From assembly GCA_951813545.1 (NCBI GenBank), contig OX638352.1:4736835-4800834 (forward strand): a stretch of DNA of 64,000 nucleotides, written 5' to 3'. A program made the position numbers and the translations under genes. The stretch comes from an uncultured Poribacteria bacterium. Its GTDB lineage: Bacteria > Poribacteria > WGA-4E > WGA-3G. The notes under the pieces were generated by a model. It did not search any database and was not told where the DNA came from. It saw nothing but the letters and a program-made list of their open reading frames with translations. Within the stretch, counting starts at the first letter, position 1, and every line of letters starts with the position of its first letter. Of this stretch, positions 26,209 through 33,857 are shown in pieces.

Positions 26209-27294
26209 CTAAATCTCAGGCACTCTCACCGCAATCTCTTTACCGGCTGCATGCGAACGGAAAATACCGTCCATAATCACGTTCGTGAGAAGCACACCCT
26301 CCGGCGGTATTGGGGACGGAGCATCCGCTTTAACCGCTTCACGGAACGCTGTCATCTGGGCTGCCCAGTTATCTTCTTGTGGGAATCCTGAGAACTGGAT
26401 CGTCGTCATCCCTTCCGGTGGGTTTGGTTCCGCTGTTAATCCCTCGGATTCGACAAACTTTTTGAGATCACCATCATACGCATCGGCATAGACAACCGGT
26501 CCATTCAATGAGAAACCCGCTTTCGTCCCAAGATGGAAGTTGCCACCGAGGGAGTCCTGATGCACTGCCCAAGAGATTTTGAACACCATCACACCACCAT
26601 TTTCAAACCGCACCCACGCCGCACCGAACTCCTCAACATCCATGATACCACGGAACCTCGGATCCTGCTGCGAGATGTAATCCTCAGTGATAGCGGAGAC
26701 ACGCACTGGTTTTGGATACCCCATCGCATACAGCGAAGCATGCATATTATAGACACCGATATCGACGGTTGCACCAGCACCTGCTGTCTTCTTATAGATG
26801 AACGTATGTCCTGGGTTCCCGCGCCGCCTGCACCCTGCAGATTCAGAGTAGTAGATATCGCCGAATAACCCGGCATCAAACGCCTTTCTTATGAATTGGA
26901 GTCTCGGGCTAAATGTCGGATTGAGACCGATTTGTAAGATTTTGCCCGATGCTTTCGCCGCTCGGGTCATCGCGGTCGCATCTGGAAGTGTCGCCGCCAT
27001 CGGTTTTTCACAGAGGACGTGTTTACCGGCGTTCAATGCTGCCACTGTCGGTCGCCGATGCCCCTGATTGTAAGTGCAGACACTCACTGCATCAAGTTCG
27101 TCCATTTCGAGCATCTTGTTGTAGCTTGAAAAAGCGTTCTGTTTCGGGACACCCCACTCTTTAGCGGCTTGATTTGCCTTACTTTTGATGATGTCACAGA
27201 CCGCAATGATCTCAAAACCGCCTACTTTCTCGTAGGTGCTCTGGTGCGCACGTGAAATGCCACCTGTACCAATAATACCAACCTTGACAGTCAT
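26209..27294 (-). CDS. Gfo/Idh/MocA-family NAD(P)-dependent oxidoreductase
   Basis: N-terminal Rossmann VGIIGTGGISRAH; 361 aa. Confidence 0.85.
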   Translation of the reverse strand: MTVKVGIIGTGGISRAHQSTYEKVGGFEIIAVCDIIKSKANQAAKEWGVPKQNAFSSYNKMLEMDELDAVSVCTYNQGHRRPTVAALNAGKHVLCEKPMAATLPDATAMTRAAKASGKILQIGLNPTFSPRLQFIRKAFDAGLFGDIYYSESAGCRRRGNPGHTFIYKKTAGAGATVDIGVYNMHASLYAMGYPKPVRVSAITEDYISQQDPRFRGIMDVEEFGAAWVRFENGGVMVFKISWAVHQDSLGGNFHLGTKAGFSLNGPVVYADAYDGDLKKFVESEGLTAEPNPPEGMTTIQFSGFPQEDNWAAQMTAFREAVKADAPSPIPPEGVLLTNVIMDGIFRSHAAGKEIAVRVPEI

Positions 27295-27342: not shown

Positions 27343-28428
27343 CTAAATTTCCGGCACTCTCACCGCAACCTCTTTTCCAGTCTCATGCGAACGGAATATG
27401 CCTTCCATAATTACATTTGTGAGAAGTACACCTTCGGGAGGTATCGGCGATGGTGCATCTGCCTTAACGGCTTCACGGAACGCGGTCATCTGTGCTTCCC
27501 AGACATTGACCGCTGGGAATCCTGAGAACCGGATCGTCGTCATTCCATCCGGCGGGTTCGGCTCTGCTGTCAATCCTTCCGATTTAACCAGTTTCTTGAG
27601 GTCATCCGTATAGGCATCGGCATAGACGACTGGTCCATCCAAGGAGATACCCATTTCTTTACCGAGACAGAAACTGGGACCGAGCGAATCCTGATGAATC
27701 GCCCAAGAGATTTTGAACACCATCACGCCACCGTCTTCAAACCGCACCCACGCGACACCGAACTCTTCAACATCCATAATCCCTCGAAATTGTGGATCTT
27801 GCTGCGAGATGTAGTCTTCAGTAATAGCAGAGACACGCACGGGTTTTGGATACCCCATCGCATACAGCGAGTTGTGCATATTGTAGACACCGATGTCTAC
27901 AATCGCACCAGCGCCCGCCGTCTTTTTGTAGATGAACGTGCGTCCCGGATTTCCACGCCGTCTGCCACCTGAAGACTCGGAGTAGTAGATGTCGCCGAGC
28001 AGTCCTTCATCGATTACCTTCTTCGCAAATTGGAGTCCCGGATTAAACGTGCTGTGGATACCGATCTGCAGGATTTTGCCCGACGCTTTTGCTGCCCGGA
28101 CCATCGCGGTCGCATCTGGGAGCGTCGCTGCCATCGGTTTCTCACAGAAGACATGTTTGCCAGCATTCAACGCTGCCACTGTCGGTCGCCGGTGTCCTTG
28201 GTTGTAAGTACAAACACTCACCGTGTCGATTTCGTCCATCTCAAGCATCTTGTTGTAACTGGTGAAGACGTGCTTTCTCGGTACACCCCACTGATCGGCG
28301 GCTTCGTTTGCCTTGCTTTTGATGATGTCGCAGACTGCAACGATCTCGAAACCGCCTACTGCCGTGTAAGATCGCTGGTGCGCCCGTGAGATACCGCCTG
28401 TACCCACAATACCGACTCGAATCGTCAT
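27343..28428 (-). CDS. Gfo/Idh/MocA-family oxidoreductase, tandem paralog
   Basis: 361 aa, co-linear with 26209..27294 and about 80-85% identical by eye. It carries the same motifs. Confidence 0.85.
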   Translation of the reverse strand: MTIRVGIVGTGGISRAHQRSYTAVGGFEIVAVCDIIKSKANEAADQWGVPRKHVFTSYNKMLEMDEIDTVSVCTYNQGHRRPTVAALNAGKHVFCEKPMAATLPDATAMVRAAKASGKILQIGIHSTFNPGLQFAKKVIDEGLLGDIYYSESSGGRRRGNPGRTFIYKKTAGAGAIVDIGVYNMHNSLYAMGYPKPVRVSAITEDYISQQDPQFRGIMDVEEFGVAWVRFEDGGVMVFKISWAIHQDSLGPSFCLGKEMGISLDGPVVYADAYTDDLKKLVKSEGLTAEPNPPDGMTTIRFSGFPAVNVWEAQMTAFREAVKADAPSPIPPEGVLLTNVIMEGIFRSHETGKEVAVRVPEI

Positions 28429-28556
28429 GTTACTATCTCCTCATGTGTAGAATAGAATTGCTATACGAGTTTAGACGAAATCGGTTTGTAATGCAAGGGG
28501 AAAATGTGATATACTTCAAGGTACATATTCTATATGCTGACAGAAAGGAGAACATC

Positions 28557-29276
28557 GTGAGTATTGATACAGATAAAAGACGACTTTCACAAGTACAGAC
28601 CCCACAAAATATGCGCGGCAATCTGAGCCCGGAACATATATTTAATCAGCTTTATGATGATTTACAAAACGCGAGTCAAGCACAACTGGGTTGGCAGTGG
28701 TTGTTACCATTGCGTTCTGCTGACGTACATCATTTACAATCCTTGGGAATCCCTGCTACTAACGCACAGCAAGATTTTGATGGTTTGGTGCTAAGCCTTG
28801 CCAAGATACTCATTGATTCTCTGAATGAAGAGTCACTGAAAAAGTTGATTCCTTGTGAGAAATGGGAAGCATTTAAAGATAAAAGAGGCATTGCCCTGCT
28901 TGAAGCTGCCTTATCTTTGAATGAACTTAAAGGTGCTGATGTTCACGTTGCCTTTCTACGGAAACTCCAGAGTTTTCGCGCAAGTGGGAGTGTTCATCAG
29001 AAAGAACACAACTATTTAAAAGTCGCTAAGTATTTTGACTTTGGAAGCCAGAGTCCACGGAATGTTTTTGCCAATATACTAAACAGTGCCTCAGATACAC
29101 TGGATTACTTCATTGCTCTTGTAAATAGTGGACGCATACGTGACATTTTTGAAAAGAACCAAATAGCGATCGGATATGCTGGTTTTAGCGATATGATTGG
29201 TATTGCAGATTTTGGCACATCTGATGCCTCTGTCAACCACGACGAAGCCATCTACGAATTACAATCGAAATCATGA
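28557..29276 (+). CDS. Hypothetical protein, upstream partner of the PIN-domain gene
   Basis: Start refined to GTG 28557, preceded by an AAAGGAG RBS. The ORF-track start at 28386 would overlap the divergent gene. Its stop overlaps the PIN gene start (ATGA). No recognisable domain. Confidence 0.45.
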   Translation: MSIDTDKRRLSQVQTPQNMRGNLSPEHIFNQLYDDLQNASQAQLGWQWLLPLRSADVHHLQSLGIPATNAQQDFDGLVLSLAKILIDSLNEESLKKLIPCEKWEAFKDKRGIALLEAALSLNELKGADVHVAFLRKLQSFRASGSVHQKEHNYLKVAKYFDFGSQSPRNVFANILNSASDTLDYFIALVNSGRIRDIFEKNQIAIGYAGFSDMIGIADFGTSDASVNHDEAIYELQSKS

Positions 29277-29683
29277 TTTTTGTTGATACTGGTGGTTGGA
29301 TCGCTATTTTAAATAGGAGAGATCAACACCATCAAGAAGCTGTGGCGATATTCAACAAACTGCAACAGCAGCACATGCGTCTCCTAACTACAGATTATGT
29401 AATTGATGAAACCGTTACTCGTCTCAGATACGACACTAACCACTCACTGGCAGTCATGTTCTTAAACCGTATCGAACTACTTGTGGAAACAGGTGTTTTA
29501 ATCATTGCAGAAATTGATAAGGACATGTTTGAGAAAGCAATAGCACTTTTTCGTCAGTATGACTCGGCACGGTTATCTTTTACGGATTGCACAAGTTTTG
29601 TAGTGTGTCACGAGAATAACATCCGCGAGGCTTTTGCATTTGATCAGCATTTCCCAATAATGGGAATTAACTTGCGCCGATAA
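29273..29683 (+). CDS. PIN-domain ribonuclease (VapC-like toxin)
   Basis: 136 aa. MIFVDTGGWIAI places the first acidic residue. TDYVIDETVT and SFTDCTSF supply further conserved D/E/D residues. Confidence 0.7.
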   Translation: MIFVDTGGWIAILNRRDQHHQEAVAIFNKLQQQHMRLLTTDYVIDETVTRLRYDTNHSLAVMFLNRIELLVETGVLIIAEIDKDMFEKAIALFRQYDSARLSFTDCTSFVVCHENNIREAFAFDQHFPIMGINLRR

Positions 29684-29817
29684 TCTGCCTCGCTTCCCAT
29701 TATCACTTCACCAGTTATTCTATTTTCTTTTAAATTAAACCTAAATTTTGGATAATTTTGGCGATATTTATGTGGTCTTCTCATGCATATCTTGTGAACC
29801 ATTGGAATCATGCCAGA

Positions 29818-30771
29818 CTATCGCCTCAAAATTTCCTCACGATGCCATGCCAAAGCATCTTGAGCAGGATAGAATTCGTCGTGCTCCGGCAGTAGTATCG
29901 GCTTATCGCGCAAGGTCGTTAGCGTCCACTCTGTAGGTCCACGCTCCAACATAAGTTCTGAAACAATAACCTTGTAGTTTCTATCGACGGAAATTAAGCC
30001 TCTATCAAAAGACCAGTGATGCAGTTGACAAAGGGAAATCCCATTCCGCACATCGTTATTTCCTGAAACCTTGAACGGAATGATATGGGCAGCTTCAGTT
30101 ATACTTTCGCCGTCCAGTGTTAGAACATACAATTGACAAACTGCACAGGTATAGTTGTAGATTCTCATGATTGCTCGGCGGAAACCAGCAGTCCGAATTG
30201 GCTTTTCTGTTTTGATTTGTGCCAACGGTTGTAAGGATGAAAATGTGTGTTTAACTTGCCGTAGTAGTGAACGTCTGTACTTATCAATCTGTTGTTTTTC
30301 AGTTATTAGGCTTTCAATTACTTGCTTAAAATCTGCGAAATAGGTATTGACAAGGGTTTGACGGATTACCTCTCTATCATGAGTATCAGTAAGTAAAAGA
30401 AATAATTCATCATCAAAACTCGCGTACGCAATCACCTCACGAATACGAGAAGCCGTTTTAAGTTGAGATGCAACGCCTAATGCTGTTTCATATCCAGGGT
30501 TTGGGTGGAGATGCCAGAATCCTTCGCTCTTTAAATGGAAAAATGGCATGGCAATATTAGGTTTCCTATCCGTTAGCTTAGACCAATATTTCAGAAAAGC
30601 CTCCGCCAACTCCGGGGAAAGGACTATTTTATTTTCGGGAATCTGTCCTTGTTCAATGCGTTCAATAACTGCTAACAGCAGGAGAGGTTTATTAGGTGCT
30701 GCGCCACGTGCTCTATCTATTCGCAATTTCTCCATCTTTCGGATATATTTTTGGAGGATGTTGGTAGACAT
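29818..30771 (-). CDS. HNH endonuclease with an uncharacterised N-terminal domain (candidate restriction/defence nuclease)
   Basis: C-terminal HNH motif HIIPFKVSGNNDVRNGISLCQLHHWSFD. The N-terminal ~200 aa (APNKPLLLLAVIERIEQG ... SEGFWHLHP) were not assigned to a family. Confidence 0.65.
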   Translation of the reverse strand: MSTNILQKYIRKMEKLRIDRARGAAPNKPLLLLAVIERIEQGQIPENKIVLSPELAEAFLKYWSKLTDRKPNIAMPFFHLKSEGFWHLHPNPGYETALGVASQLKTASRIREVIAYASFDDELFLLLTDTHDREVIRQTLVNTYFADFKQVIESLITEKQQIDKYRRSLLRQVKHTFSSLQPLAQIKTEKPIRTAGFRRAIMRIYNYTCAVCQLYVLTLDGESITEAAHIIPFKVSGNNDVRNGISLCQLHHWSFDRGLISVDRNYKVIVSELMLERGPTEWTLTTLRDKPILLPEHDEFYPAQDALAWHREEILRR

Positions 30772-30950
30772 TTTTTTTCGTGATACCCTCTGGTGTTTGG
30801 CAGAGAAATTTCGTAAAAATTAACTGTTCTCTAATACAGAATTTTATCATATATCACGAAAAAGTCAATTTTTGTTTGAAGAAGTAAGATAGACGGTATT
30901 AACCGATGCCCACAGGCAAAACGAAGTTCTATAATCCAGTTAAGTTTTTC

Positions 30951-30979
30951 TTGACATTTCTGTTTAACCGTGTTATGCT
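30951..30979 (+). promoter_or_regulatory. Sigma70-like promoter upstream of the FGE/CCP cluster
   Basis: TTGACA (30951..30956), a 17-bp spacer, then TATGCT (30974..30979). It lies about 70 bp upstream of the ATG at 31047. Confidence 0.45.
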
Positions 30980-31046
30980 GAATCAGACGATGCAGGTTAG
31001 ATAACATTACAATCGATTTGAAATTGCAGGCGAGGAGGAAAGGAAA

Positions 31047-31844
31047 ATGAAAAGGGTATTTTGTTTTGCTTGTGCCTTGGTGCTAATTTTCACAGGGCAC
31101 ACATTTGGACAGGATGTCGCTGTTTTTTATGACGCAGCGGTTGAAAATGGTGGCGGCTTAGCCGTTCCGAACCCGAAGCAGTTAGCAGAAATGATGGTAG
31201 AGGAGCTTGAGGCAAAAAAACTAACTGCTGAAATTGTGGATAGCGACGAGTTAGCGGAGTATATGAAGGCGAACCCCAAGGGTATCTATATCATCACGCA
31301 AGGGAATACCCCTGGCACGATATTTAAAAAAGAAGGCAAGAAAGACCTTGTTTATACATGGCTAAGAGAAGGCGGGATCGGCGGATTCATCGGCGATTAC
31401 GCGTTCTACTATTATTGGGATAAGGGAGCGCGTGTTACTGCTGCCGGTGCCGGGCAACAAAGCGTGTTTGGTGCTACAATCACAAACGGCACAGTCTCGC
31501 AAGTCAGCCCAACGGATCTTGGGAAGGAGCTCATCCCTTCTCTCAAGAAGTGGAGTTCAAATCGCGCATCAGGTCTTGCTGTTTTGAAGCAAAACGATTT
31601 TGAGTATGAAAGTTATGCCGATGACGGTGTAAACGCAGATCCAATCGCTTACCGCACAAAAGACATGGAGGGATGGTTTATCAACTTCCATACTTCATGT
31701 TGTGGAACAGTCATACCACCGAATGATCAGATCGCTACCGAGTACGCAGAACTGATTTCAAATCGTTTTGCAACTGCAAAAGCAGTAGATCCAACTGGTA
31801 AAGTGAGTGTCGTCTGGGGACGGCTCAAAAAATCACGACAGTAG
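31047..31844 (+). CDS. Secreted protein of unknown family, paralog 1 of 3
   Basis: Signal peptide MKRVFCFACALVLIFTGHTFGQ. Shares VA(I/V)F, (E/Y)GG, DY(I/A)FY and C-terminal D-P-x-G-K-x-x-V-x-W-G-x-(L/I)-K motifs with 35391..36197 and 36303..37124. Confidence 0.5.
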   Translation: MKRVFCFACALVLIFTGHTFGQDVAVFYDAAVENGGGLAVPNPKQLAEMMVEELEAKKLTAEIVDSDELAEYMKANPKGIYIITQGNTPGTIFKKEGKKDLVYTWLREGGIGGFIGDYAFYYYWDKGARVTAAGAGQQSVFGATITNGTVSQVSPTDLGKELIPSLKKWSSNRASGLAVLKQNDFEYESYADDGVNADPIAYRTKDMEGWFINFHTSCCGTVIPPNDQIATEYAELISNRFATAKAVDPTGKVSVVWGRLKKSRQ

Positions 31845-31969: not shown

Positions 31970-32839
31970 ATGCCACGAAAAATTATGTTCCTCCCACTAT
32001 TAACTAACTTTGGTATCAAAGCAACAGTGAAACATTGCGCCATCTTATGTTTCTTTATTGGCTTAAGCGTTAACCTGACTTCATGCGGTGACGATGAGAG
32101 TCCAGAGGAGCTGACGGATTCGCAAACATCTCTGGAGGCTTCCGACACCCGAATTGATGTTGAAGAGATGGTTTTGATTCCAGCAGGAGAGGTTCGGCTC
32201 GGCACGGATAGCAAGACCAACTTGACGTTCGGAACAGAAGCCGACCTTCGGACAGTTTTTGTCGCAGCGTTCCACATCGATAAATATGAGGTTACAAACA
32301 AACAGTACGCAAAATTCCTCTTGGAGACTGGACATCGGAAACCGAAGTTCTGGGATGATCCAAGGTTGAACACTCCAGATCAACCGGTTGTGGGAGTCAA
32401 TTGGGAAGACGCTGAGGCTTACGCTGTATGGGCTGGCAAACGGCTACCTACCGCGAGTGAATGGGAGAAGGCGGCGCGTGGTATAGATGGTAGACTTTAT
32501 CCGTGGGGAAATGATTATGATGCGACGCGCGGCAATTTCGACGATGGTGGAAGGATGGACGGTAGCACGGATGGCTATGCAATGACTTCTGCACCTATCG
32601 GGAATTTTATAGAGGGTATAAGTCCGTATGGACTCCATGATATGGCAGGAAATGTTTGGGAATGGATAATGGAAGACCCAGGACAGTCGAAAGCGACAGA
32701 TGAGAAAACCTATGCAATTCGTGGGGGATCATGGACGAACGGCGCGGGGGATACACGAACAACGGTCGCTTATATCTACCCAGCACAATGTAGCGATCAT
32801 AGCAGTTCCGTTGGATTCCGTTGTGCAAGGACACCTTAA
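31970..32839 (+). CDS. Formylglycine-generating enzyme (FGE/SUMF1) family protein, lipoprotein
   Basis: GVNWEDAEAYAVWAGKRLPTASEWEKAARG and RGGSW motifs. N-terminal signal with Cys (NLTSCGDD). Confidence 0.8.
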   Translation: MPRKIMFLPLLTNFGIKATVKHCAILCFFIGLSVNLTSCGDDESPEELTDSQTSLEASDTRIDVEEMVLIPAGEVRLGTDSKTNLTFGTEADLRTVFVAAFHIDKYEVTNKQYAKFLLETGHRKPKFWDDPRLNTPDQPVVGVNWEDAEAYAVWAGKRLPTASEWEKAARGIDGRLYPWGNDYDATRGNFDDGGRMDGSTDGYAMTSAPIGNFIEGISPYGLHDMAGNVWEWIMEDPGQSKATDEKTYAIRGGSWTNGAGDTRTTVAYIYPAQCSDHSSSVGFRCARTP

Positions 32840-32948
32840 ACCTCTGATGCAATCTTTCATAGTAGTAGACGCACGCTGCGTGCACTAACAGAGCAATTAA
32901 AAATCGACGAATGTGGTTACTGAACTGAATTCCTAAAAGATAACACTT

Positions 32949-33857
32949 ATGCGAGATACATTGAAATCCGTAATCTGTTTCCTGATGTTGTTAGGCGTGA
33001 TCCTGATGGGTTGTGGCAGTGATGAACAGATGCTGGTTGAAGAAGAAACGGAAGAAATTCAAATCATTGAGATGCCAGTGGTAGAAGTCGTACCTGAACC
33101 GATACCGATAGACGTACCAGCAGGTATGGTATACGTCCCCACTGGGGAATTTATCATGGGCAGCGATCCGGATGTTGATCCAATGACGGATGCGCTCGAT
33201 GAACTCCCGCAGCACAAGGTGTTTTTGGATGCCTATTTTATTGATAAACATGAAGTGTCGAACGCCGACTACACCAAATTTGTTGAAGCCACCGGACACC
33301 GGAATTCAATCTTCTGGGATAACCCGAAGTTTAATCACCCTGACCAGCCGGTTGTGGGTGTGACCTGGGGCGATGCAGCCGCTTATGCAGCGTGGGTTGG
33401 GAAACGCCTGCCTACTGAAGCGGAATGGGAGAAGGCAGCACGCGGCACCGACGCACGCATTTGGCCCTGGGGCAATGAATTCGATCCGACGAAATGCAAC
33501 TTCGATGATGAGGGAAAATTTGACGGACATCTTGACGGTTTTGCGATGGCAGCACCGGTAGAGAGTTTCGAGGGGGGTGCGAGTCCGTATGGTGCATTCA
33601 ACATGGCAGGGAATGTCGCAGAATGGGTTGCAGATTGGTTTGACGCAGAATACTACGCTGTCAGTCCTGCGGAAAACCCGAAAGGTCCTCCAACGAGTGG
33701 GATGGGGAAAAAATCGTGGCGGGGTGCAAGTTGGTTCGCCGGTCCAGATCAGATGCGGTGTGCATTCCGAGAATATGACGACATTGTCGCGAGTGGACAG
33801 ATAATCGGATTTCGGTGCGCGAAAGATGCGATGCAAGATGCACCGAGAGTCGAGTGA
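32949..33857 (+). CDS. Formylglycine-generating enzyme (FGE/SUMF1) family protein, lipoprotein, tandem paralog
   Basis: GVTWGDAAAYAAWVGKRLPTEAEWEKAARG and WRGASW motifs. Lipobox LMGCGSD. Confidence 0.8.
   Translation: MRDTLKSVICFLMLLGVILMGCGSDEQMLVEEETEEIQIIEMPVVEVVPEPIPIDVPAGMVYVPTGEFIMGSDPDVDPMTDALDELPQHKVFLDAYFIDKHEVSNADYTKFVEATGHRNSIFWDNPKFNHPDQPVVGVTWGDAAAYAAWVGKRLPTEAEWEKAARGTDARIWPWGNEFDPTKCNFDDEGKFDGHLDGFAMAAPVESFEGGASPYGAFNMAGNVAEWVADWFDAEYYAVSPAENPKGPPTSGMGKKSWRGASWFAGPDQMRCAFREYDDIVASGQIIGFRCAKDAMQDAPRVE

Follow-up and report, generated by a model that had tools for sequence, protein, structure and literature searches.

In the VapBC toxin–antitoxin modules, among them M. tuberculosis VapBC20 and that of A. 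fulgidus AF_1683, a PIN-domain toxin with four conserved acidic residues is encoded immediately downstream of its antitoxin, the two genes overlapping by 4 nt, and the antitoxin, normally of about 80 amino acids (aa), ends in a tail that neutralises the toxin. The SBD-HNH type IV restriction enzymes (SprMcrA, EcoWI, ScoMcrA), characterised in PMC7461809, PMC6224610 and PMC7470945, combine an N-terminal sulfur-binding domain (SBD) for phosphorothioate (PT) links with a C-terminal HNH_2 nuclease domain. Two further described systems, HEC-03 (ABC ATPase and PIN) and GAPS6 (TPR and PINc), consist of a large defence-island protein beside a PIN nuclease (10.1101/2024.01.29.577857; 10.1101/2023.03.28.534373). 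A locus with likenesses to all of these was analysed at positions 28557–30771 of a stretch of 64,000 nt of DNA (hereafter the window), the nearest relatives of which are Candidatus Poribacteria metagenome-assembled genomes. We read it as two independent elements lying in a Poribacteria hotspot, namely a VapBC-type module with a chimeric antitoxin (28557–29683) and an SBD-HNH enzyme (29818–30771), and give this reading a probability of about 0.7.

The first element shares with the VapBC modules the PIN toxin with its four acidic residues, the position of the antitoxin gene and its 4-nt overlap, and an antitoxin that ends in the xHDxx[ILV]Y-type tail of the small antitoxins belonging to this PIN subfamily. 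It differs from them in that the tail is carried by a helical domain of ~170 aa instead of an RHH, AbrB, HTH or Phd domain, and in that the antitoxin has 239 aa, and ancestrally ~600 aa, as compared with the normal ~80 aa. The pair is thus best described, as far as sequence comparison goes, as a VapBC-type module with a new chimeric, shortened antitoxin, for which toxicity and neutralisation would be expected. As in HEC-03 and GAPS6, a large protein related to defence islands adjoins a PIN nuclease; the partner described here is neither an ABC ATPase nor a TPR protein, and it carries a VapB-type tail, none being reported for those two systems.

The PIN pair and the family of its partner

The PIN gene (29273–29683, + strand) encodes a protein of 136 aa, which matched Pfam PF01850 with an E value of 8.9e-11, exceeding the gathering score. 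The nearest solved structures were A. fulgidus VapC AF_1683 (1w8i, E 2e-11) and M. tuberculosis VapC20 (5wzf, E 1e-10). Residues D5, E46, D105 and D124 were invariant in 12 relatives from four phyla, in agreement with an earlier note on this DNA, in which a PIN protein with the conserved acidic residues had been recognised. The protein scored 17.6 bits against the NCBIfam VapC equivalog NF047959, for which the cut-off is 80 bits, and the ratio of nonsynonymous to synonymous substitution rates (dN/dS) of its gene was about 0.19. The product would be a VapC-like, Mg2+-dependent RNase able to arrest growth.

The partner gene (28557–29276, + strand) has a GTG start with the sequence AAGGAG 7 nt upstream, and its product has 239 aa. 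This start is backed by homology, as the 239-aa relatives and the ~600-aa proteins considered below all begin M-[SG]-I-[DN]-x-D-[KR]-x-R-L. The stop codon of the partner and the start codon of the PIN gene overlap in the ATGA at 29273–29276, as had been observed previously, and nearly all of the 36 loci whose PIN gene is intact have this 4-nt overlap. The description of the pair as coupled and toxin–antitoxin-like is in keeping with this overlap and with the tail-bearing gene found upstream of every intact PIN gene; the 239-aa open reading frame (ORF) was conserved together with the PIN gene in relatives, and the partner is indeed oversized for a VapB protein, its 239 aa comparing with a median of ~82 aa for related antitoxins.

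The last ~44 residues of the partner (…TSDASVNHDEAIYELQSKS) carry the motif that ends the ordinary ~82-aa antitoxins preceding related PIN genes. When 80 metagenome loci with PIN homologues (34–62% identical to the window PIN) were fetched, the motif xHDxx[ILV]Y was found to end 60 of the 78 upstream ORFs (such as …DLSVNHDKYLYGK and …TDASINHDAIIYE), the median length of which was 82 aa; the N-termini of some of the small ones matched RHH or MazE/AbrB weakly. In L065 (designations of this kind refer to related loci), where the PIN protein is 62% identical to that of the window, a free-standing 83-aa antitoxin has a C-terminal half that is 68% identical to the tail of P0348, a full-length Gemmatimonadetes protein, and 41% identical to the window tail. 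Residues 196–239, encoded together with the stop codon at 29142–29276 (+ strand) and ending …IGYAGFSDMIGIADFGTSDASVNHDEAIYELQSKS, are accordingly annotated as a VapB-type antitoxin tail by motif homology, and they are the putative PIN-binding element. The earlier note had seen no recognisable antitoxin fold in the partner, which stands as regards a DNA-binding antitoxin fold and has to be amended for these ~44 residues.

Partner proteins of several lengths were present in 57 non-redundant related loci, of which examples are named here. The full-length form of ~583–608 aa occurs in L009–L017, L021, L022, L024 and L025, and a form of 239 aa, made up of an N-terminal stub, core and tail, is common to the window, L001, L007 and L019. 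Core and tail alone make up proteins of 213–218 aa in L005, L018, L020 and L038. In three loci from Latescibacterota (L058–L060) a fragment of the N-domain is fused straight to the tail (274–292 aa), and in L047, L048, L051 and L052 only ten N-terminal residues and the tail are left (66 aa); L033, L044, L049 and L053 have tail-less proteins of ~550 aa. These length forms stem from at least five different deletions.

A tail-bearing ORF preceded the intact PIN gene in 36 of 36 loci, with the 4-nt overlap or within a few nt of it, and in 37 of 37 when the Gemmatimonadetes locus L064 was included. No tail-less member was accompanied by a PIN gene among the related loci, and several tail-bearing ORFs had lost their PIN gene or stood before a truncated one. 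The association of tail and PIN was significant (Fisher p = 1.5e-5, from hand-tallied counts of 37, 13, 0 and 10). The toxin can be lost and the tail cannot while the toxin is present, an asymmetry that addiction logic predicts.

Individual cases of decay of the PIN gene were seen in L006/L026 (10642–10896), L045, L017 and L052, where it has been shortened, has suffered a frameshift or survives as a C-terminal remnant, and the tail-bearing partner persists; in these loci the toxin is lost and an orphan antitoxin is left.

Searches with the 239-aa partner in Pfam, NCBIfam, PADLOC, PHROGs and PDB sequences gave no match. Its AlphaFold2 (AF2) model showed an all-helical body at residues ~20–218, with a mean predicted local distance difference test score (pLDDT) of 78.9 and a predicted TM-score (pTM) of 0.74. 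The pLDDT of the core was 80–95, residues 196–218 were modelled within a long helix, and the last ~21 residues (219–239) were disordered in the protein alone. Comparison of this model with the PDB by Foldseek gave no fold match, the best hit reaching only E 0.3 and a TM-score of 0.26. A profile built from the partner and 35 relatives was then searched against 1.84 billion representatives and retrieved 941 of them, most of ~530–565 aa and matched at their C-terminal residues ~380–545. On the evidence of this profile, partner residues ~25–195 (28629–29141, + strand) are homologous to the C-terminal helical domain of a widespread family of ~550-aa proteins. The partner can thus no longer be regarded as wholly unknown, as it had been, and corresponds to an internally deleted version of a ~600-aa tailed form.

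Such a ~600-aa protein, with N-domain, core and tail and followed by a PIN gene, is encoded at the orthologous site in many Poribacteria, for example in L009. The window partner aligned with residues 1–~20 and ~383–602 of the L009 protein, its residues 1–20 (SIDTDKRRLSQVQTPQNMR; 28557–28616, + strand) being the N-terminal remnant of the ~600-aa ancestor by alignment with L009 and P0258 and by comparison with the N-termini of the family. The ~360-aa alpha/beta N-domain is absent from the window and present in the full-length orthologues L009–L017 and others. By this alignment the window copy is an in-frame deletion derivative from which ~360 residues of a ~600-aa gene have been lost. The deletion junction is common to the window, L001, L007 and L019, and because it is shared with L019 at only 58% identity the deletion must be old. 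Purifying selection still acts on the truncated partner, which is no dead remnant: the dN/dS of the core was 0.21 for truncated and 0.15 for full-length proteins.

As compared with the ~550-aa family (WP_007250370.1; P0258, P0282, P0281), in which the counterparts of window residues 1–20 and ~25–195 are the N-terminus and the C-terminal domain, respectively, the window protein lacks the ~360-aa N-domain and possesses the extra tail, a feature of only ~2–3% of members. Typical members end …VRSGR, and among full-length proteins the additional ~44 residues were found in only 2 of 88 and 3 of 119. The most economical history suggested by these comparisons is that the big gene was fused to the part of a vapB gene encoding its toxin-binding half. 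The tail, which in normal relatives follows an RHH or AbrB domain, would have been grafted onto the helical domain of a ~550-aa defence-island protein, giving an ancestral gene of ~600 aa (N-domain, helical core and tail), from which the window copy would have lost ~360 residues of the N-domain by the old in-frame deletion. Like VapB tails, the C-terminal ~44 residues of the partner would neutralise the PIN protein; disordered when alone, they would fold into the active-site groove of the PIN domain, and the pair may act as an addiction or defence module.

The ~550-aa family comprises at least 2,519 clusters at 90% identity from many phyla, all of them named ‘hypothetical’. Full-length members gave no match in Pfam, NCBIfam or PADLOC, with the exception of an N-terminal HTH on the outlier P0165, and a PDB profile search returned noise only. 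The AF2 model of a full-length protein was of moderate quality (pLDDT 75, pTM 0.46). Its comparison with the PDB by Foldseek gave a single weak match, to Avs3 (E 0.016, prob 1.0), for which the aligned region was not reported and on which we do not rely, and the comparison with BFVD gave nothing. A scan of viral contigs for the family yielded one prophage copy only, and tblastn against phage genomes none.

Tail-less members were located in L146 (5001–6686), L148 (5001–6665), L151 (6977–8557, WP_007250370.1), L145 (4986–6653) and L061 (6001–7659), and their settings were examined. One tail-less member is a moron in a P2-like prophage, presumably placed between the baseplate gene V and the tail-completion gene S, to go by translated N-termini. 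In L146 and L148–L150 the gene stands between hsdS and hsdR of a type I restriction–modification (R-M) operon (hsdM-hsdS-[X]-hsdR) with 4-nt overlaps. An integrative element that also carries a serine recombinase, insertion sequence elements and TrbL has another tail-less member beside its Mrr_cat nuclease gene, and in the Gamma-Mobile-Trio (GMT) island of the P. syringae plasmid pPma4326F the gene of WP_007250370.1 opens the cargo that follows GmtX. The members of L063 and L147 stand alone among metabolic or housekeeping genes. Full-length tailed proteins followed by a PIN gene were found in four phyla. Embedding in R-M operons (‘guilt by embedding’) is known to predict defence genes (10.1101/2024.01.29.577857), and GMT cargo is rich in them (10.1101/2023.03.28.534373). 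The ~550-aa family is a candidate new defence gene, for which a defence or sensor role is plausible.

The SBD-HNH nuclease and the variable hotspot

Convergent to the pair lies the gene of a 317-aa protein (29818–30771, − strand), in which the HNH motif HIIPF…NGISLCQLHHW read in the earlier note is present. The domain HNH_2 (PF13391) was found at residues 209–263 (29983–30147, − strand) with an E value of 1e-12, and residues 6–141 (30349–30756, − strand) matched the solved sulfur-binding domain SBDHga (PDB 8H0L, E 2.7e-19). The NCBIfam model NF045808, ‘phosphorothioated DNA-binding restriction endonuclease’, matched from end to end (residues 12–316, E 1.7e-41), in agreement with a PADLOC HNH match (E 3.5e-21) and with PF26340, which is precomputed on SBD-HNH orthologues. 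The cavity of SBDHga is formed by H25, K26, L75, P76 and H79 (PMC10602919), to which N27, K28, M75, P76 and H79 correspond in the window protein, four of the five being identical or conservative. The cavity residues P76 and H79 and the HNH residues H229, N243 and H252 were invariant across 22 homologues.

By domain architecture and these residues the protein is a divergent new member of the known SBD-HNH type IV restriction family, a predicted phosphorothioate-dependent enzyme. The suggestion that it may read modified DNA through its N-terminal domain was right to the extent that a phosphorothioate SBD is predicted, and the folds named with it, SRA, EVE and winged helix, did not apply. The protein differs from ScoMcrA in the lack of an SRA domain, and from Hga, whose nuclease is PD-(D/E)XK, in having an HNH domain (PMC10602919). 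From the biochemistry of the family (PMC7461809, PMC6224610, PMC10602919), the hydrophobic cavity of the SBD would bind PT links in foreign DNA and the HNH domain would cut nearby, restricting PT-modified invaders.

Two tandem divergent SBD-HNH paralogues, 48–72% identical to the window protein, were found side by side in L014, L015, L018 and L031. In three of these four loci the more divergent paralogue has an altered cavity (Y/K/N/P/Y in L031, Y/K/N/P/H in L014 and H/K/D/P/R in L018), which suggests that the PT-sequence specificity predicted for such enzymes is diversifying. The orthologue of L009 (11238–13356) is split, with residues 47–316 and 1–51 lying ~1.1 kb apart, and appears to be disrupted by an insertion. 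In L013 residues 1–140 only remain.

In sister genomes the order of genes at this site is oxidoreductase(s), partner, PIN, an optional gene of 187–197 aa, dndC, dndD, dndE, cargo, SBD-HNH and a 265-aa gene. The orthologous site contains dndCDE genes in L005, L010, L015, L017, L019, L022–L024, L026, L038, L043 and L050, and tblastn of the dndC, dndD and dndE products of relatives against the whole 64-kb window found nothing. Between dndE and SBD-HNH the cargo of sister genomes includes SMODS and SLATT, SLFN_AlbA_2, DUF6602 and others. In L005, L015, L017, L019 and L026, 4–8 kb of dndCDE and other defence genes separate PIN from SBD-HNH; the window and about ten relatives are without this middle cargo, and PIN and SBD-HNH are adjacent in all of them because it is absent. 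In addition, the tailed protein and PIN occur at other sites and in other phyla without SBD-HNH (L028–L042, L064). The three genes are kept in dozens of relatives, so that their presence is not due to chance. Judged by synteny, the trio marks a variable defence hotspot and not one machine. The earlier proposal of a small defence or addiction island is retained in the sense of such a hotspot, and joint action of the three genes is not part of it, there being no evidence of such action and 4–8 kb of cargo in sister genomes.

Among the cargo, L006 (15758–18527) has a CBASS-like pair, SMODS with SLATT_4, and SLFN_AlbA_2 between dndE and SBD-HNH, and L005 has there a DUF6602 gene and a 316-aa gene without assigned function. 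The cargo of the hotspot turns over rapidly.

Competing explanations

Several observations weigh against the reading as two independent elements with a chimeric antitoxin and a PT-dependent nuclease. The NF045808 score of the nuclease, 142.3 bits, is under the curated cut-off of 180 bits, which makes the protein a divergent member of its family, and the first cavity His is replaced by Asn (N27), position 27 being Asn in 9 and His in 11 of the 22 homologues. No RHH, AbrB, HTH or Phd domain was found in the partner with Pfam and NCBIfam, and no operator-like inverted repeat upstream of its gene, so that the autoregulation typical of type II toxin–antitoxin systems is unaccounted for. The divergence of the PIN protein is no less closely correlated with that of the core than with that of the tail (partial correlations 0.43 and 0.29), and in a Mantel test the tail–PIN correlation was significant but no stronger than that of core and PIN; co-evolution therefore gives the tail no specific support. 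Purifying selection has continued to act on the core since the N-domain was lost, and the core must therefore serve beyond tail carriage, e.g., in oligomerisation, stability or contact with another partner. Finally, dndCDE and an intact-looking SBD-HNH gene share an island, 2–6 kb apart, in L005, L015, L017, L019 and L026, in which the catalytic and cavity residues of the nuclease are conserved. A dnd pairing was reported for <3.6% of such enzymes, and the coexistence sits uneasily with simple PT-dependent self-avoidance (PMC7461809). The residues of the SBD cavity showed no relation to whether dnd genes occur in the same island.

A tentative alternative, which we hold possible but not probable, is that the pair is or derives from a sensor–effector anti-phage system, in which the ~550-aa sensor holds the PIN protein inactive by the tail and releases it on infection (abortive infection), the window copy, which lacks the N-domain, being disabled or re-purposed. 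Its appeal lies in the defence settings of tail-less members (hsd operons, the Mrr_cat element, the GMT island and the P2-like prophage), in the published value of embedding and of GMT cargo as indicators of defence genes, in the weak Avs3 match of the full-length model, and in the occurrence of the full-length tailed protein with PIN across four phyla. The weak point is the N-domain, for which searches gave no identifiable fold or catalytic motif, and which has been lost repeatedly while PIN and tail persist, so that the pair has lasted where the putative sensor is gone; the members that stand alone among metabolic genes in L063 and L147 do not fit either. An extended version, held just as tentatively, would make the ~550-aa family a new anti-phage protein that in sponge-symbiont lineages captured the C-terminal half of a VapB and became a sensor-tethered VapC system, releasing PIN on infection, of which the window copy is a naturally minimised derivative. 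That the 239-aa ORF is instead a decaying remnant, of which only the tail matters and the rest is drifting to loss, seems unlikely to us. Repeated independent truncations, down to 66 aa, would agree with drift, as would the identities between the window and L001 (79% for the partner, 93% for PIN and 97% for the adjacent oxidoreductase) and the slightly higher core dN/dS of truncated (0.21) than of full-length (0.15) forms. The dN/dS values of ~0.2–0.3 are, however, far from neutral, the 239-aa form with the same junction persists across lineages that are only 58% identical (L019), many genomes carry the 213-aa form free of frameshifts, and the core was modelled confidently by AF2.

The two remaining explanations tie the pair to its neighbours. 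A DndB-like role, in which the 239-aa protein would regulate or assist the dnd operon and PIN would be incidental, is very improbable: in dnd-positive sister genomes the pair immediately precedes dndC and shares its strand, in the classical position of dndB, and no dndB was seen there, but in the window and in many relatives the pair is retained and dnd genes are absent, the tailed protein and PIN occur at unrelated dnd-free sites (L028–L042, L064), the parent family is tied to type I R-M, GMT and prophage rather than to dnd, and no DNA-binding or DGQHR/ParB-like domain was found in the partner (Pfam, NCBIfam). We find it harder still to credit that the three genes form one unit, e.g., with the SBD-HNH protein sensing PT-DNA and signalling to the PIN pair. 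In the window, as in about ten relatives (L001, L007, L008, L014, L018, L020, L025, L031, L046, L051), the nuclease gene adjoins the pair and converges on it, and the three have a low G+C content in common, yet other genes intervene over 4–8 kb in the five sister loci named above, the pair occurs without SBD-HNH in L021, L028–L042 and L064, and SBD-HNH enzymes act alone in published assays (PMC7461809). We reject, or give low weight to, the DndB-like role, the pure pseudogene and the three-gene unit.

If the pair is a VapBC-type module as proposed, natural variation would show that a type II antitoxin can arise when a large protein of unrelated origin acquires a toxin-binding tail of ~44 residues, and the series of ~600, 239, 213 and 66 aa would define a minimal antitoxin, the tail not being losable while the toxin is intact. 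Should the sensor-tethered version hold, the same Poribacteria series would map the parts needed for neutralisation and for sensing. The most interesting lead is the parent ~550-aa family, which lies outside the coding content of the window itself: a large family without annotation and with a strong defence-island signature, it is a concrete candidate for defence discovery and possibly a case of an antitoxin doubling as a sensor. The PIN pair appears to be a new VapBC variant with a chimeric, shortened antitoxin. The assignment of the nuclease, a new member of a known family, is routine; some of its sister orthologues share their island with dndCDE, and the presence of dndCDE and SBD-HNH in one hotspot offers a natural test of the coexistence of PT writer and PT cutter.

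Leader, borders and neighbouring genes

The partner gene is preceded by an intergenic leader (28429–28556, + strand) with a promoter-like site at 28486–28515 and the Shine–Dalgarno sequence AAGGAG. Scans for promoters and terminators gave weak consensus matches only, at a density near that of shuffled sequence. The G+C content was ~0.40 over 28500–31000, as compared with ~0.50 in the flanks. A perfect 10-nt inverted repeat (ATAATGGGAA / TTCCCATTAT, with a 27-nt loop) at 29657–29703 spans the PIN stop codon (29681–29683) and could be a transcript-end hairpin common to the convergent genes.

The left border of the hotspot is a tandem pair of Gfo/Idh/MocA-type oxidoreductase genes (26209–27294 and 27343–28428, − strand), assigned from the ORFs and from the precomputed Pfam GFO_IDH_MocA matches of orthologues. 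The two copies are 83% identical, and the tandem duplication mentioned in the earlier note is thus real. The number of tandem copies beside the hotspot varies from one to three per relative (L014 and L045, for example, have three, and L005 and L019 a single one). On the right the hotspot is bordered by the 265-aa gene (31047–31844, + strand), an orthologue of which, 91–95% identical, flanks the variable region in L001, L008, L009, L014, L015, L045 and L046. Its product gave no match in a Pfam search, and its N-terminus resembles a signal peptide as judged by eye.

Beyond this border two tandem genes with lipoprotein-like N-termini occupy 31970–33857. The first (31970–32839) matched the FGE-sulfatase family PF03781 with an E value of 3e-53, and the second (32949–33857) looks, as judged by eye, like its paralogue.

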